From NCBI GenBank assembly GCA_965208905.1, contig OZ242365.1, forward strand, positions 1,184,001 to 1,248,000: DNA of 64,000 nt, written 5' to 3'. Made by a program: the position numbers and the translations under genes. A model generated the notes under the pieces. That model was not told the origin of the DNA, ran no database searches, and saw only the letters and a list, made by a program, of their open reading frames with translations. Below are positions 5,141 to 31,425 of this stretch, piece after piece (within the stretch, counting starts at the first letter, position 1; every line of letters starts with the position of its first letter). The DNA is from Nitrosopumilaceae archaeon (GTDB taxonomy: Archaea > Thermoproteota > Nitrososphaeria > Nitrososphaerales > Nitrosopumilaceae).

Positions 5141-5938
5141 ACTCATATCCAGAGATGGCGCCGAATTTGTAATATATCCTAATGATATATAATCTACTCC
5201 TGTTGCACCATATAATGTAATATTTTCAGCAGTAATGCCGCCAGAGGCTTCAAGTTTTACAGAGTTTCGTAGGCCTACTCTTTCTAACTCTAGTATGGCA
5301 TTCTGTATCTGGTCTGGGGTAAAGTTATCTAATAGAATGATGGGGGCTCCTAGCGTGGCGGCCAACATGCAGTCTGATGGTGTGTCCACCTCTACCTCGA
5401 ACTGCCTTTTTTGTAGTTGGGCCTTTTTTATAAGACACTCCAAAGATCCTTCTACAGATATGTGGTTGTCTTTTATCATGATCATCTCGCCTAGATTCAT
5501 ACGGTGACGCATACCTCCACCATCCTCTACTGCCTCCTTATCGAATATTCGTAGTCCCGGAGCAGTCTTGCGTGTAGCCAACAACCGCACGTCTTTTGGT
5601 ATGTTTGATACCAGCTGTTTTGTCAGTGTAGCAATACCACTCATGCGGGACATTAGGTTCAGGGCAGTACGTTCTAGTGACAGTATGTCGGCAGCATTAC
5701 CCTGTATACCCATTATGGTATCTCCACTATGTGCATACTCTCTATCCTGTATGATTACATGGGTCTGACAGTCTCTCATGTCGAATATGGTTGATACATA
5801 CTTCGTCCCAGATATGATGCCATCTTGTCTTGTTATTATGCGTGCCTGAATTGTAGTTTTGTCTAAAAGGGCACTTGTAGAATCCCCATCTACAAGATCC
5901 TCATGTATGAACGACTCTAATATTGCGCGTATGTTCAT
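5129..5938 (-). CDS. nadC: Nicotinate-nucleotide pyrophosphorylase (quinolinate phosphoribosyltransferase)
   Basis: TRKTAPGLR, HR..L...IMIKDNH, EVEVD, ILLDN and EASGGI motifs. Confidence 0.95.
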   Translation of the reverse strand: MNIRAILESFIHEDLVDGDSTSALLDKTTIQARIITRQDGIISGTKYVSTIFDMRDCQTHVIIQDREYAHSGDTIMGIQGNAADILSLERTALNLMSRMSGIATLTKQLVSNIPKDVRLLATRKTAPGLRIFDKEAVEDGGGMRHRMNLGEMIMIKDNHISVEGSLECLIKKAQLQKRQFEVEVDTPSDCMLAATLGAPIILLDNFTPDQIQNAILELERVGLRNSVKLEASGGITAENITLYGATGVDYISLGYITNSAPSLDMSLEV

Positions 5939-26619: not shown

Positions 26620-27846
26620 ATGCCTGATGAGATAATTGAGATGCGAGGCCATCTTATTGATTCAATGACATTGACTCGTGTAATGAACAAGATAATTGCT
26701 CGTGGCGGAAGCTATGAATTTTTACAGTTCGATGTGGGTCTCAAAGATACCGACACAAGCTACTTGAAACTTCAGGTAACTGCAGACACCACGACACTCT
26801 TGGATGAAATATTAGACGACATACATAGTGAAGGTGCAATTGAAGTATCGCCAAAGACTGTTATGATAAAACCCGCCCCCAAAGACATGACACTTCCCAT
26901 GGACTTTTACAGCACTACAAACAACGAGACTAGAGTATTCTACGATGACCACTGGATTACGGCACAGAGACAGATGATGGACAAATGTATAGTTGTTCAA
27001 GATAAGACTGCTGTATGCACAGCCATTCGTGATGTTCGTAAGGGTGATGGAATAGTTTGTGGTGAGAATGGGGTTCGTGTAGTTGTACCACACCGCCCTC
27101 GAAAGACATCTGATACATTTACGTTCATGAATAGTGGCAGCTCTAGCGAACGTCCTACTCTGAATATTGCTCGTCGGGTAGCTCAGGATATATACAATAC
27201 AAAAAAAAGTCATGGCCGTGTTATACTGGTGGGCGGACCGGCAATTGTACATACTGGAGGCTCGCCATCTGTAGCTGGCATGATTCGTAATGGATACATA
27301 AATGGGATTTTGGCAGGAAACGCCTTGGCCGTACATGATATAGAAAGCTCCATTTATGGCACTTCATTGGGTATGCGCATAAAGGATGCTACACCCGCCA
27401 GCAAAGGCCATAGAAACCATATGGATACTGTAAATGAAGTGTTCACATATGGCTCAATATATGATATGGTTGATGCTGGCAGATTAAACAAGGGAATATT
27501 TTATGAGTGTGTTAAACATGACACACCGTTTGTATTAGCCGGCTCCATACGTGATGATGGCCCGCTCCCTGACGTTGTAACTGATGTGGTTGAGGCCCAA
27601 AAAGAGTACAAAAAGATGTTGGATGGCGCTACACTAGTTCTGATGATATCCACAATGCTTCACTCTATTGCTGTTGGCAATATGCTTCCCTCTACGGTAA
27701 AGATAATTGCTGTTGACATAAATCAATCCACTGTAACAAAATTAATTGATCGTGGTACGTGGCAGGCTATGGGTATAGTTACAGATGTCGGGGCATTTTT
27801 ACCATTGGTGGTACAGGAGCTTGAGAATCAAGAGTCTACTGTGTAG
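26620..27846 (+). CDS. LOR/SDH-domain protein (TIGR00300-like; putative ornithine cyclodeaminase)
   Basis: GHLIDS, FYSTTN, SSERP, GNALAVHDIE and GSIRDDGPLP motifs. Confidence 0.85.
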   Translation: MPDEIIEMRGHLIDSMTLTRVMNKIIARGGSYEFLQFDVGLKDTDTSYLKLQVTADTTTLLDEILDDIHSEGAIEVSPKTVMIKPAPKDMTLPMDFYSTTNNETRVFYDDHWITAQRQMMDKCIVVQDKTAVCTAIRDVRKGDGIVCGENGVRVVVPHRPRKTSDTFTFMNSGSSSERPTLNIARRVAQDIYNTKKSHGRVILVGGPAIVHTGGSPSVAGMIRNGYINGILAGNALAVHDIESSIYGTSLGMRIKDATPASKGHRNHMDTVNEVFTYGSIYDMVDAGRLNKGIFYECVKHDTPFVLAGSIRDDGPLPDVVTDVVEAQKEYKKMLDGATLVLMISTMLHSIAVGNMLPSTVKIIAVDINQSTVTKLIDRGTWQAMGIVTDVGAFLPLVVQELENQESTV

Positions 27847-27962
27847 AAAAAAAATGGGAATTATAGTGATGGGTAGGATCATTTAATAATCCCAAACGGT
27901 GTAGTATAGCAAATTCAGATCCAAGGAGGTGAACGGGTAAACAGGATGCAAAAAATGCGGTT

Positions 27963-28112
27963 TCATATGCAAGTGTGCGATTTAATCATCAACCGAGGTG
28001 TCATGAATGTAAAAGGGAATGAAACCAATAGAATACACGATAGACACAGCCCGTGTATTTGAGGACATGCAGAATCAAACAGATGACATCCACACAGCCC
28101 TACAAGTTTCAT
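27963..28112 (-). CDS. Putative 49-aa Cys-rich hydrophobic peptide (IS cargo)
   Basis: MKLVGLCGCHLFDSACPQIHGLCLSCILLVSFPFTFMTPRLMIKSHTCI; preceded by GGAAGGTGAGGTG and a TATA-like ctatata about 25-30 bp upstream. Confidence 0.35.
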   Translation of the reverse strand: MKLVGLCGCHLFDSACPQIHGLCLSCILLVSFPFTFMTPRLMIKSHTCI

Positions 28113-28276
28113 GACACCTCACCTTCCTTTATATTGTATATAGTGGTTTTGATCATTTAGATACCGTAGCATTATATGTCGCGTATCGTATTGTACAATG
28201 CCATGCGGGTTTAGTAGAAACTTTCACTCGTAAATTCATTAACGATATCCGTATCATGGCCTCTGCGGGTATCATA

Positions 28277-28558
28277 TCATGTCTTATAACGCATGTCCAA
28301 AACTCGCACTATACTATGTGTTATGTGCAGCATGGTTATCTTGCGTGGAGGCCGTGACTCAAATAAGGCCCTCTCAGACTCTAAATCTTTGACTTTCTGC
28401 AACAATTCCTTCAAGTATGACATGGTTATATCGTCTGCCCGTAATTGATGTGTGTCTTTTGCCTTGTTGTATGTTGTCCCTCTGAATGATGTTACTGTTT
28501 CTATGTTGTCCCTGGGATATTCTGGCAAATTCTCTAGTATGTCCCGTTCCAATGTCAT
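28277..28558 (-). CDS. Orphan 93-aa protein (IS cargo)
   Basis: ATG ORF with a TTTATA box about 25 bp upstream; no recognisable domain. Confidence 0.55.
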   Translation of the reverse strand: MTLERDILENLPEYPRDNIETVTSFRGTTYNKAKDTHQLRADDITMSYLKELLQKVKDLESERALFESRPPRKITMLHITHSIVRVLDMRYKT

Positions 28559-28907
28559 AATGCGAGTTGTATGACAGTCTGTATAAACTCTATCAATGTT
28601 TATAATACAACCACAAGGGCAATGATATGTCGCACGGGTTCATTAATGCTCGTTAAATCGTTGCTGCCGTCCATATTGCGACCTCTGTGGACGGCAAAAT
28701 CTAAGATATAGCATTACATTTTTGTGATAAAGTTGGTTTACTATGTATTAACTTTGTACAACTAAATGCAAGTAAACATAGAGTTATAACCATAATCTAA
28801 GTATATACAAACAATGGTATAACAGTTCCATGTTACTGCTTCAGATACCATGAGCGGTAACTGTCGCTGCCCCTGTAGATTGTGAGCTAGGGGCAGCATC
28901 ATCCTTT

Positions 28908-28990
28908 GTCGTGGTGGTCTAGTCTGGTAGGGCGGCGGTCTCAAAAATCGCTCATTCACAATGGCGCAGGTTCAAATCCTGTCCACGGCG
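28908..28990 (+). tRNA. Class II tRNA with CAA (Leu) anticodon and tRNA-Ser-like body
   Basis: Acceptor GTCGTGG/CCACGGC + G73; D arm GTCTAGTCTGGTAGGGC; anticodon arm GCGGT-CTCAAAA-ATCGC; variable arm TCATT-CAC-AATGG; T arm GCAGG-TTCAAAT-CCTGT. Confidence 0.9.
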
Positions 28991-29000
28991 CACTAAACAT

Positions 29001-29951
29001 CTAACTTATCAGTTGCTCATATGTCAACCGCTTGCCAATCATGCCCCTTGCCAAACTTATCATCATGTCTTCAGTGTCTAGATTTCGTATGTTTAAACGG
29101 CCAGCAAACTCATTGACATACCTGTGCAGGTGCTTTGCCGACACATGATGGAATGTACCGTAATAGCCACGCTTTAACAAAGCCCAAAAGGATTCTATGC
29201 CGTTAGTGTGCGCCATGCCGTTGACATATTGACTTACCGAATGATTAACCACTTCGTGATTTGGTAAACTCTTGTATGCTCTATGCTCATCCGTATAATG
29301 GGTACTGCCCGACTTGACATTGTCTTTAATAAATTTGCCAAGTCGAGCAGATGTGGTCTCATTTACGGGTTCGGCTCTTATATCACCTGTCTTTCTATCT
29401 TTGATACCTACAACTGCGGTTTTGTTTGCACCGCCTTGACTGTGGGGTTGTTTCTTTGTACTGTGTTTGTTCTTTTCCTTGCCACCGATATAGGTCTCAT
29501 CTATTTCGACTGGACCTTCCAGTTTGTCAATACCTGCCAATGTTTGCCATGATTCACGCAAACGCTGAACCATGAACCATGCTGAACTTTGGGATATGCC
29601 TAAGTCTCTGTGTAGTTTCATTGATGATATACCCTTGACATTAGTCATAAACTGGTATGTTGCGATTGCCCAATGCTGGTATGATATTTTGGATTGTTGC
29701 ATTACAGTGCCGACTTTGACTGAAAAATACGTTTTGCACTTACTACAATAGTATGGCATCTTTGGATGTTTACATTCTATGGTATCATCATGTTTGCAGT
29801 TGGGACATTTACGGCCATCTCTCCATATGTGGCTTTCAAACCACTTCATGGATGTATGATTGTCTGGAAACATCTTTAGTAAATCTATTAGTGTGATTCC
29901 TTCCCTGTGTGATTTGCCTGGTGCTTGTTGCATGTAATACCTTAGATTCAT
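29001..29951 (-). CDS. IS1595-family (ISXO2-like) transposase
   Basis: Zn ribbon CPNC...CSKC, HTH, VEIDETYIGG, YTDE, VNHS, HTNGIESFW and YVNEF motifs. Confidence 0.96.
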   Translation of the reverse strand: MNLRYYMQQAPGKSHREGITLIDLLKMFPDNHTSMKWFESHIWRDGRKCPNCKHDDTIECKHPKMPYYCSKCKTYFSVKVGTVMQQSKISYQHWAIATYQFMTNVKGISSMKLHRDLGISQSSAWFMVQRLRESWQTLAGIDKLEGPVEIDETYIGGKEKNKHSTKKQPHSQGGANKTAVVGIKDRKTGDIRAEPVNETTSARLGKFIKDNVKSGSTHYTDEHRAYKSLPNHEVVNHSVSQYVNGMAHTNGIESFWALLKRGYYGTFHHVSAKHLHRYVNEFAGRLNIRNLDTEDMMISLARGMIGKRLTYEQLIS

Positions 29952-30033
29952 AGGGCATATAAATCCTACCCATCACTATAATTCCCAAAAAAATCCTCAA
30001 CACCAACGATATAATTTGAACATAGATGCAATT

Positions 30034-31425
30034 TTACTCTTTTAATAACTCTCCAAGTATGCGTAAAACCTCCTGTGGGTCGGCAGCACCACGAGTCTCT
30101 CTCATTATGATGCCTACTAAATAATTGATGGCCGGCGGATTTATACGAGCCTCATGCGCAGCCTGAGGCTCCTTCTGTAATGTGTCTGATATTATATCGT
30201 ATAATTTGGAGGTATCATAACTACTCGCGTCAAGTATGTCATCTATGTCTCCACCTTTTTTTGCTATTTTGTATAATACATCCTTGGCTACGGCCCTTGT
30301 AATTTTATTACTCTTTATCAACGTGGCAATCTTTGATAGATGCTCTGCAGTAATCTGTGAGGCGGCACGTTTCTCCCGAGTATCCATAACCCCCATAAAA
30401 TCAGTGGTTAGAATATTGGCTATTATTAAAGCCGTCTCCGGCGTTAGAGCCTCTTCGAATAAGCGACAACAACGTGTATCTGATATGAGCACATTGGCTA
30501 CCTGCGGTTTTATATTATACTGTTTGATGTATCGCTCCCGACGCGCTGTGGTACTCTCGGGCATATTGGCGGATATCTCTTTTATTGTATCATCATCTAA
30601 ATCCACCCAAGGAATATCTGCCTCTAAAAAGTACCTATAGTCAAGCTCTGCCTCCTTTGTACGAGACGATATTGTAATTCGACGGCGCTCGTCCCAATGC
30701 CGTGTCTCTTGTTGTATTGTAATGTTGTTCTCGTATAGACTGCTCTGTCGTGTTAGTTCATAATGTAGGGCTTTTTCCAGATCGTGGAATGAGTTGATGT
30801 TTTTAATCTCTACTTTGTTTCCGTCATGCACTGAAACATTTCCATCGGCGCGCATAGCACCATCCAGATACGGGTCTGCTATGTCTAGATTCTTTATGGT
30901 GTCTGCCAGCATATTCATAAAACTGCGTGCCTGTCGCGGACTGTCAAAGTCCGGCTCAGTTACAATCTCTACTAGTGGAACACCTGCCCTGTTGTAATCC
31001 ACAAGCGTTGTCTGGCGACCATCGTTGCCTCCTTCATATGTGAGCCTACCGGGATCCTCCTCCAACTGTATACGTCTGATGCGAATCTCTGTACCATCAT
31101 CTGTATTTACTGTGCCGTTACCGCCTATACTGGTGTGACCATATGCATCAAACTGTGTTATTTGATAGTTCTTTGGCAGGTCGGGATAAAAGTAGTTCTT
31201 GCGAAAGAAGGCCAGACTCTCTGGTGTAGTGCAGTTTAGTGACATGGCCAGAGCAACTCCATGTCGTACTGCCTCTGAGTTTAGCAAAGGCAGCGTACCG
31301 GGCAGTCCCAAACATATGGGACATGTATTGGAGTTTGGTGCCATACCTCTGTAGTTGGCCTTGCATGGACAGAACAACTTTGACTGTAATCGGGTCAACT
31401 GACAGTGTATCTCTAGTCCTATTAT
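30034..31425 (-). CDS. gatB: Asp/Glu-tRNA amidotransferase subunit B
   Basis: IGLEIHCQL upstream of the track start, RKNYFYPDLPKNYQITQ, DYNRAGVPLVEIVTEPD; start appears to be ATA. Confidence 0.95.
   Translation of the reverse strand: MIGLEIHCQLTRLQSKLFCPCKANYRGMAPNSNTCPICLGLPGTLPLLNSEAVRHGVALAMSLNCTTPESLAFFRKNYFYPDLPKNYQITQFDAYGHTSIGGNGTVNTDDGTEIRIRRIQLEEDPGRLTYEGGNDGRQTTLVDYNRAGVPLVEIVTEPDFDSPRQARSFMNMLADTIKNLDIADPYLDGAMRADGNVSVHDGNKVEIKNINSFHDLEKALHYELTRQSSLYENNITIQQETRHWDERRRITISSRTKEAELDYRYFLEADIPWVDLDDDTIKEISANMPESTTARRERYIKQYNIKPQVANVLISDTRCCRLFEEALTPETALIIANILTTDFMGVMDTREKRAASQITAEHLSKIATLIKSNKITRAVAKDVLYKIAKKGGDIDDILDASSYDTSKLYDIISDTLQKEPQAAHEARINPPAINYLVGIIMRETRGAADPQEVLRILGELLKE

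Follow-up and report, generated by a model that had tools for sequence, protein, structure and literature searches.

A transposable element of 2,131 bp in the genome of a sponge-associated, ammonia-oxidising archaeon of the Nitrosopumilaceae has moved together with a tRNA gene that lies between its inverted ends. The element occupies positions 27856-29986 of the 64,000-nucleotide stretch of DNA analysed here (the window; bases 1,184,001-1,248,000 of contig OZ242365.1, which, as a single contig of 2,214,775 bp and 45.6% G+C, makes up the host genome). Element and tRNA cargo are both real, and the element is intact and has been active recently. Taken as a whole, it is very probably a recently active, cargo-carrying transposon of the IS1595 family, the cargo of which includes a tRNA that combines a serine-type body with the leucine anticodon CAA.

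An IS1595-family element that has moved with a tRNA gene

The two inverted ends are complementary at 24/24 nt, and a copy of the same 8 bp, AAAAAAAT, adjoins each of them (coordinates of the features are collected in Table 1). The transposase reading frame is uninterrupted; its product matched PF12762 over 1-153 of 153 positions (E 2e-40, 138.6 bits; cut-off 27) and the NCBIfam IS1595 model NF033547 with 176.1 bits (cut-off 75). The score against PF12760, the N-terminal zinc ribbon, was 20.1 bits (cut-off 25.4), two CxxC pairs being visible in the translation. The 1,121 bp of cargo, which extend from the transposase stop codon to the distal end, contain ORF93 as the one credible gene and, on the plus strand, a tRNA; ORF93 and the tRNA unit are divergently oriented, and the tRNA points towards the 3′ end of the transposase gene, with a gap of 9-10 nt to its stop codon. 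An earlier note on this DNA, made from the letters alone, had described perfect 24-bp terminal inverted repeats, an 8-bp target duplication, an intact IS1595-family transposase and about 1.1 kb of passenger DNA with a complete tRNA cloverleaf close to the transposase stop; all of this held, with ARAGORN and the Rfam model RF00005 agreeing on the tRNA. When the whole 2.2-Mb genome was searched with up to 6 mismatches allowed, the 24-nt end with at most 1 mismatch occurred only at the four ends of two copies of the element, which excludes chance; a single remnant with 3 mismatches lies at 79828-79851 of the host genome.

The second full copy, at 675,271-677,401 of the host genome, differs from the first at 1 of 2,131 positions, inside the right end, and its tRNA is identical. 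It is flanked by an 8-bp duplication of its own, AAAATTAT, and lies between P-II-like and AsnC-type genes, next to a TBP-like gene (all three labels were read from translations). Since the duplication of the second copy is a different one, the whole unit, tRNA included, has transposed. The recent insertion of a tRNA-mobilising IS1595 transposon, as proposed in the earlier note, is thus borne out by a further copy within the same genome.

To examine the junctions we aligned public contigs, not raw reads, over 27600-30250, and counted a junction as bridged when a contig had at least 31 letters inside the element. The element has inserted into the short stretch that separates the stop codons of an ArgZ-like/LOR-SDH gene and of gatB, which converge on each other. 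A 14,879-bp contig from run X5 joins 27847 directly to 29987, with 0 differences in 512 flanking bases; 8 letters at the joint fit either side, which corresponds to a single AAAAAAAT. The same joint was found in a 316-nt contig of RNA run X16, and a 254-nt contig of run X8 has it one base over (27846 to 29987). The empty site with one AAAAAAAT between the LOR/SDH gene and gatB, for which the note had asked, therefore exists, and the near-identical strains that show it lack the element and the tRNA alike, rather than keeping the tRNA at this locus without the insertion sequence (IS). Contigs over the tRNA were absent from runs X5, X8 and X16, but contigs cannot show absence, and we did not use this as evidence. 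In run X1, the likely source, the right junction is bridged by a 15,634-bp contig that has 48 nt of the element and continues into gatB; further contigs span 27854-29841, and a second contig, which has the one-base variant, continues into the other locus. On the left side, X1 contigs reach 28 nt into the element from the flank, under the bridging limit.

As tRNA genes are the usual integration targets of mobile DNA (PMC6563490), the IS might have landed beside a resident tRNA, or the arrangement might be an assembly artefact of a repeat. Both are ruled out by the two-copy structure and the empty site: each copy holds the tRNA inside its inverted ends, with different flanks and duplications, the empty site is free of the tRNA, and the two right junctions are separated by the 1-nt variant in independent X1 contigs.

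Table 1. Features of the element, in positions of the window
Feature	Position	Strand	Remark
Left copy of 8-bp target-site duplication AAAAAAAT	27848-27855	.	one copy kept in empty-site contigs
Distal terminal inverted repeat, 24 nt, begins GGGAATTATA	27856-27879	+	first 10 nt recur at the ends of relatives
Orphan cargo gene ORF93 (93 aa)	28277-28558	-	
TATA-like box, candidate promoter of the tRNA unit	28802-28807	+	lies some 25 nt ahead of the leader hairpins
5′ leader of two hairpins, immediately upstream of the tRNA	28832-28901	+	predicted folding
Class II tRNA: anticodon CAA, discriminator G73, Ser-type D-loop and variable arm	28908-28990	+	ARAGORN, RF00005
IS1595-family DDE transposase, 316 aa, intact	29001-29951	-	PF12762, NF033547
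Transposase-proximal terminal inverted repeat, 24 nt	29963-29986	-	1 mismatch here in the other genomic copy
Right copy of 8-bp target-site duplication AAAAAAAT	29987-29994	.	

The host encodes an archaeal AmoA (386.7 bits), its nearest named transposase relatives are in genomes labelled Cenarchaeum sp. and Nitrosopumilaceae, and contigs identical to the flanks of the element are present in runs labelled sponge metagenome. Its genome also holds three shorter, diverged relatives of the element, which match it over the transposase part only (75-86% DNA identity) and are free of the tRNA. A closer transposase relative (93% over 103 aa) is present as a truncated copy at 79503-79851 of the host genome (L005), and the same sequence of about 30 nt flanks it and the copy at 1045431-1046389 (L004), which suggests another repeat element or a preferred target.

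Body, anticodon and leader of the cargo tRNA

ARAGORN placed the tRNA at 28908-28991 on the plus strand, with stems of 7/4/5/5; the anticodon loop of 7 nt reads CUCAAAA, and the variable arm is a stem-loop. Its RF00005 score of 47.9 bits (gathering score 29) falls among those of the native leucine tRNAs (40.6-53.7 bits). The anticodon, CAA, is that of a tRNA-Leu and not of a tRNA-Ser (NGA or GCU). The body, in contrast, is of the serine type. The variable region of about 14 nt, with a stem of 3-4 bp, together with G73, is as expected of a tRNA-Ser; the discriminator A73 expected of a tRNA-Leu, and present in 3/3 of the host's own tRNA-Leu that were checked alongside, is replaced by G73, as in 3/3 of the host's own tRNA-Ser that were checked. 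The D-loop lacks the 2-nt insertion of the four aligned host tRNA-Leu (the fifth, UAA, was read by eye) and is short, as in host tRNA-Ser. Indeed, among 48 host ARAGORN calls, the closest to the cargo tRNA other than itself are four tRNA-Ser, at 74, 73, 73 and 67%; tRNA-Leu CAG and TAG, the only two tRNA-Leu among the best 14 of the 48, reach 63-64%. With tRNA-Ser(CGA) the cargo tRNA has G1, U2, C3 ... G70, G71, C72 and G73 in common, that is, the unusual G-U-C start paired to G-G-C, and its anticodon stem is almost identical to that of tRNA-Ser(CGA), the anticodon differing at position 35. To judge from its sequence, then, the cargo tRNA is a Ser-type class II body with the leucine anticodon CAA. 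The cloverleaf is complete, as the note had it, with the correction that this is not a normal tRNA-Leu.

The cargo tRNA is also surplus to the native leucine set, which is complete: CAG, UAG and GAG (called directly), CAA and UAA. The native tRNA-Leu(CAA), at 1,161,672 of the host genome, has one intron, placed manually; introns interrupt some of the tRNA genes of this host. The native tRNA-Leu(UAA), at about 2088737-2088860, appears to have two introns, also placed manually; it was missed by ARAGORN and RF00005 and found by BLAST with the other tRNA-Leu. As the set is complete, the host does not need the cargo tRNA for leucine. A single SerRS is encoded in the host, with the N-terminal arm domain PF02403; an extra SerRS paralogue was considered and rejected, as there is one SerRS per genome in 5/5 genomes checked. 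Elsewhere in the host genome, outside the window, two adjacent weak tRNA-like genes (1664528-1664679; 38-39 bits) have odd anticodon loops, for which ARAGORN gave the anticodons ACT for one and TCG or CGG for the other.

Upstream of the tRNA, the predicted two-hairpin leader folds with -33 kcal/mol (z = -3.65), and 1/200 shuffled sequences folds as well. We found no close copy of the tRNA in 200 genomes of the host family (the best match was 78% over 66 nt), and its exact IUPAC pattern gave 0 matches in metagenome and viral contigs. More distant tRNAs of the same kind were found: a D-arm motif with class II spacing matched in 5/201 genomes of the family, in 2/27 genera, and BLAST within one of these genomes added more members. 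The ten members have the anticodons CAA (2), UAA (2), UAU (3) and GAU (3), the loop being of 8 nt in two of the GAU members; G73 and A35 are present in 10/10, and the codons read are UUR or AUH. RNAalifold recovered the cloverleaf from the ten, with compensatory changes in 14/22 consensus pairs. A GC-rich hairpin lies 10-35 nt upstream in 10/10 members, and 4/8 of its predicted pairs are kept after two-sided changes. In two members from a genome of the same genus (G009), about 270 nt upstream are in common, including a TTTATAA box about 130 nt before the tRNA and two hairpins, the first of which differs in sequence and still pairs. The kept stems and the kept hairpin leader argue for selection on the RNA. 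G37 is present in the three UAU members and in one UAA member (from G008, of the same genus); in the UAU members it is unusual, as they are tRNAs reading A-starting codons.

At the level of the phylum (401 genomes), the motif occurred in six further genomes, in strings that, read by eye, look like ordinary intron-bearing tRNAs. The G009 genome has at least 5 family members on its contig C1 (at about 787,884; 1,249,532; 1,302,565; 574,585, minus strand; and 9,997), two of them 95% alike with an 8-nt loop around GAU. Within the loci examined, none of the other family tRNAs had an IS1595-type end, or an ORF93 or transposase homologue alongside. An IS beside the G009 tRNA(UAA) was rejected as its carrier, as it stops 220 bp before the tRNA. 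In G008, a 23-nt fragment (L015:307-329, minus strand) matches the 3′ end of the cargo tRNA, from T-loop to G73, at 22/23 positions; the odd tRNA(UAA) of G008 itself is about 155 bp away. The fragment may be left over from a tRNA of the same lineage, either as a relic or as the remnant of an attachment site.

The other cargo gene, ORF93, has one paralogue elsewhere in the host genome (66% amino-acid identity) and falls in only 3 clusters among 5.8 billion proteins. It had no Pfam or NCBIfam match, and its single-sequence AF2 model was unusable (pLDDT 45.8). A relation to a fragment of an ISL3 transposase was discarded, the best score in the protein atlas, 0.84, being below the level that counts. 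Among its 11 leucine codons 6 are TTG, against 1.5 expected from host usage; TTG is the codon read by the neighbouring cargo tRNA. Pfam and NCBIfam scans and a gene search of the cargo revealed no partner enzyme for the tRNA. When the 1,145-bp cargo was compared by BLAST with 60 relatives in search of a donor, only weak tRNA matches came back, and no donor was found there or in the searches with the tRNA alone.

Cargo in related transposons

Relatives of the transposase with 64-67% identity are encoded in Cenarchaeum/Nitrosopumilaceae genomes, and relatives with 44-57% identity in many bacterial genomes, among them Binatia, Acidobacteriota, Dehalococcoidia, Poriferihabitaceae and Thioclava; those from metagenomes have at most 56% identity. 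The spread of the 44-57% relatives across phyla fits a cross-domain exchange of the element family. One Thioclava genome has at least 16 copies of the transposase, and the loci L021-L097 span many bacterial phyla.

We surveyed 161 loci (160 relatives and the present element), with the ends delimited by a script that sought a repeat pair of at least 15 nt. Such a pair was found at 63/161 loci; 62/63 of these elements are 1.6-4.6 kb long, and most begin GGGAATTATA. The other 98 loci were not delimited, many of them lying at contig ends or having imperfect ends like the 1.05-kb copies of the host. Duplications of 8 bp flank 6/6 relatives inspected, as they do 2/2 copies in the host genome. Cargo as such is thus ordinary for this clade of transposons, being the rule among the delimited elements and not the exception, which corrects the reading in the earlier note. 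The scan for tRNAs between the ends of homologous elements, to which the note had pointed, found them in 3/63 delimited elements, namely the present one and two from Acidobacteriota genomes, L043 and L046.

The L043 element (L043:3942-6294) is a 2,353-bp IS1595-type element with the duplication AAAAGTAA; its tRNA (5788-5882, minus strand; RF00005 55.9 bits) is a class II tRNA of 95 nt with anticodon UAU, a 9-bp variable stem and discriminator U. The L046 element (L046:3933-6938; 3,006 bp, also IS1595-type) has the duplication TTTTCTTT and a tRNA-like gene (5794-5866; 41.8 bits) with a 6-nt anticodon loop, adjoined by a 219-aa open reading frame with a weak, sub-threshold match to SLATT_1. Both tRNAs sit deeper in the cargo, and in none of the 160 relatives does a tRNA directly adjoin the transposase stop. 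Only one copy of L043, and one of L046, is present in the respective genome; movement with a tRNA was seen only for the archaeal element. Two archaeal relatives, L018 and L019 (Cenarchaeum sp. and Nitrosopumilaceae records), carry type II restriction-modification pairs, each in an element with an 8-bp duplication: an N6_N4 methylase with an Eco47II-type endonuclease lies between the ends of the former (L018:3739-6432), and a methylase with an XcyI-type endonuclease between those of the latter (L019:3954-7380).

Elements of the IS1595 family with passenger genes are known in ISfinder as 'transporter IS', a subgroup of which has the ends GGnnATTAT and '+' members of 1.7-4.7 kb. The present element resembles IS1595 passenger elements in its single DDE transposase of about 300 aa, its GGGAATTATA ends, its 8-bp duplication and the position of the cargo after the transposase gene; it differs from them in that the cargo includes a tRNA gene and the host is a thaumarchaeon. 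We know of no simple DDE transposons that move tRNA genes, and a search of full-text literature, with most subscription journals outside it, found neither an insertion sequence or simple transposon with tRNA cargo nor any report on tRNA oddities in Cenarchaeum; as far as we found, a tRNA as the cargo of an insertion sequence is undescribed. The tRNA genes of phages, plasmids and integrative elements are likewise tied to mobile DNA; those, according to PMC6563490, belong to integrase-type elements that use the tRNA as attachment site or to large replicons with tRNA arrays, whereas here the tRNA lies between the inverted ends of a 2.1-kb DDE transposon.

Possible role of the cargo tRNA

The DDE transposase has moved the whole 2,131-bp unit between its 24-bp ends, with 8-bp duplications arising at A/T-rich intergenic targets, and has taken along an orphan 93-aa gene and a divergent tRNA unit made up of a candidate TATA-like box, a two-hairpin leader and the class II tRNA. 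We infer that this tRNA, if expressed, would be serylated and would read UUG as serine. According to a 2023 review (PMC9976931), a long variable arm together with G73 confers serine identity, whatever the anticodon; a change of A73 to G73 switches identity from leucine to serine; and G73 is an antideterminant for the LeuRS of Haloferax. Since, in the systems studied, recognition by SerRS is independent of the anticodon and LeuRS is blocked by G73, charging with serine is suggested for the cargo tRNA, and by this analogy we consider a Ser-charged reader of UUG possible, though we advance it tentatively.

Several observations weigh against a mistranslating role. The cargo tRNA is devoid of the A/T-rich box at -25 to -35 that is present in most native tRNA genes, although this may reflect the long structured leader rather than silence. 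The only RNA run examined (X16) came from an empty-site strain, and the cargo, which by the pattern search of metagenome and viral contigs and the comparison with 200 family genomes is known from one genome only, could be a neutral hitch-hiker. UUG is common in the host (16.2 per 1,000), so strong insertion of serine at this codon can be expected to do harm. The identity rules were worked out in organisms outside the Thaumarchaeota.

Several of these points would be accounted for by a silent or decaying passenger, a duplicated tRNA-Ser-like gene with a mutated anticodon and no role in translation: the promoter box is missing, the gene is followed by no T-run and 0 terminator-like sites (a count that is all we retained of a sigma-70 promoter scan, which is not applicable to archaea), the cargo is confined to one genome, and an expressed UUG-to-Ser tRNA should be costly. 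We rate this explanation only slightly below the Ser-charged reader of UUG. Against it, the cloverleaf is intact and scores within the native leucine range, the stems are kept in the family through compensatory changes, and the hairpin leader is kept as well, which argues for selection on the RNA; the identity of the tRNA in both copies points the same way, though the copies are too young for this to mean much. A working extra tRNA-Leu(CAA), charged with leucine and boosting the decoding of UUG, for example in the UUG-rich ORF93, would suit the anticodon and the excess of TTG codons in that gene, and nematode tRNAs (PMC3333845) show that class II bodies can override the anticodon toward leucine. 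It is nonetheless improbable: G73 stands where all native leucine tRNAs have A73 and is the antideterminant of an archaeal LeuRS described above, the D-loop has the length of a serine tRNA, the sequence is nearer to tRNA-Ser than to tRNA-Leu, and UUG is already read by the native tRNA-Leu(CAA) and (UAA).

A role outside decoding could also be envisaged, with the tRNA as amino-acid donor for a tRNA-dependent enzyme, as a decoy against tRNA-cutting toxins, or as an antisense to the converging transposase mRNA. The close convergence of the two genes, the conflict-type cargo of relatives (restriction-modification genes) and a conserved structured leader, which suggests regulated maturation, would agree with this; yet the anticodons of the family are not random, A35 and the UUR or AUH codons pointing to selection on decoding, and the cargo encodes no partner enzyme, and we hold such a role to be very improbable. 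A wider proposal is that the cargo tRNA is a transposon-borne mistranslator belonging to a leader-controlled CAA/UAA/UAU/GAU family with G73 in sponge-symbiotic ammonia oxidisers, and that such tRNAs are spread, along with defence genes, by IS1595-type cargo transposons moving between sponge symbionts of both domains, as weapons or shields in genetic conflict. The class II tRNA with anticodon UAU in the related Acidobacteriota element bears on the cross-domain part of this proposal, which we consider speculative and, as a whole, unlikely to be right in every part.

Natural tRNAs in which identity and anticodon disagree provide three comparisons for a Ser-charged reader of UUG. In the yeasts of the CTG clade, a tRNA-Ser(CAG) of the Ser-type class II reads a leucine codon; that tRNA is eukaryotic and chromosomal and serves a fixed change of the CUG code, whereas the present gene is accessory and mobile, concerns the codon UUG and occurs beside a native tRNA-Leu(CAA) that is kept. 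In nematodes, leucine is attached to class II tRNAs that have anticodons other than those of leucine (PMC3333845). They resemble the present tRNA and its family in being of class II with the anticodon of another amino acid, notably UAU, and in charging that is predicted or shown to follow the body; they are nuclear genes charged with leucine, in contrast to an archaeal host, G73, a hairpin leader and one member on a transposon. The bacterial tRNAProA mistranslators (PMC10404621) likewise form a natural, patchily distributed family in which identity elements and anticodon are at odds; they are Pro-type class I tRNAs of bacteria with Ala or other anticodons, not reported as transposon cargo in the abstract of that paper, while the present ones are Ser-like, of class II, with Leu/Ile anticodons.

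If simple DDE transposons move tRNA genes, then even the smallest class of mobile element is able to disseminate and multiply the decoding apparatus itself. Thaumarchaeota do have cargo-carrying transposons, and in two relatives the cargo consists of restriction-modification genes; passenger-carrying transposons are a class that had gone undetected in archaea, thaumarchaea included, according to a 2019 survey (Krupovic et al. 2019, PMC6563490). Most surprising is the mismatch in tRNA identity, together with the place of this tRNA in a small family that has leaders and Leu/Ile anticodons. As body and anticodon point to different amino acids, deliberate misreading of codons by an archaeon becomes directly testable, and public sponge metagenomes contain strains of both kinds, carrying and lacking the element, side by side. 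Should the tRNA be expressed and charged with serine, the transposon may be disseminating a gene whose product might misread the genetic code.

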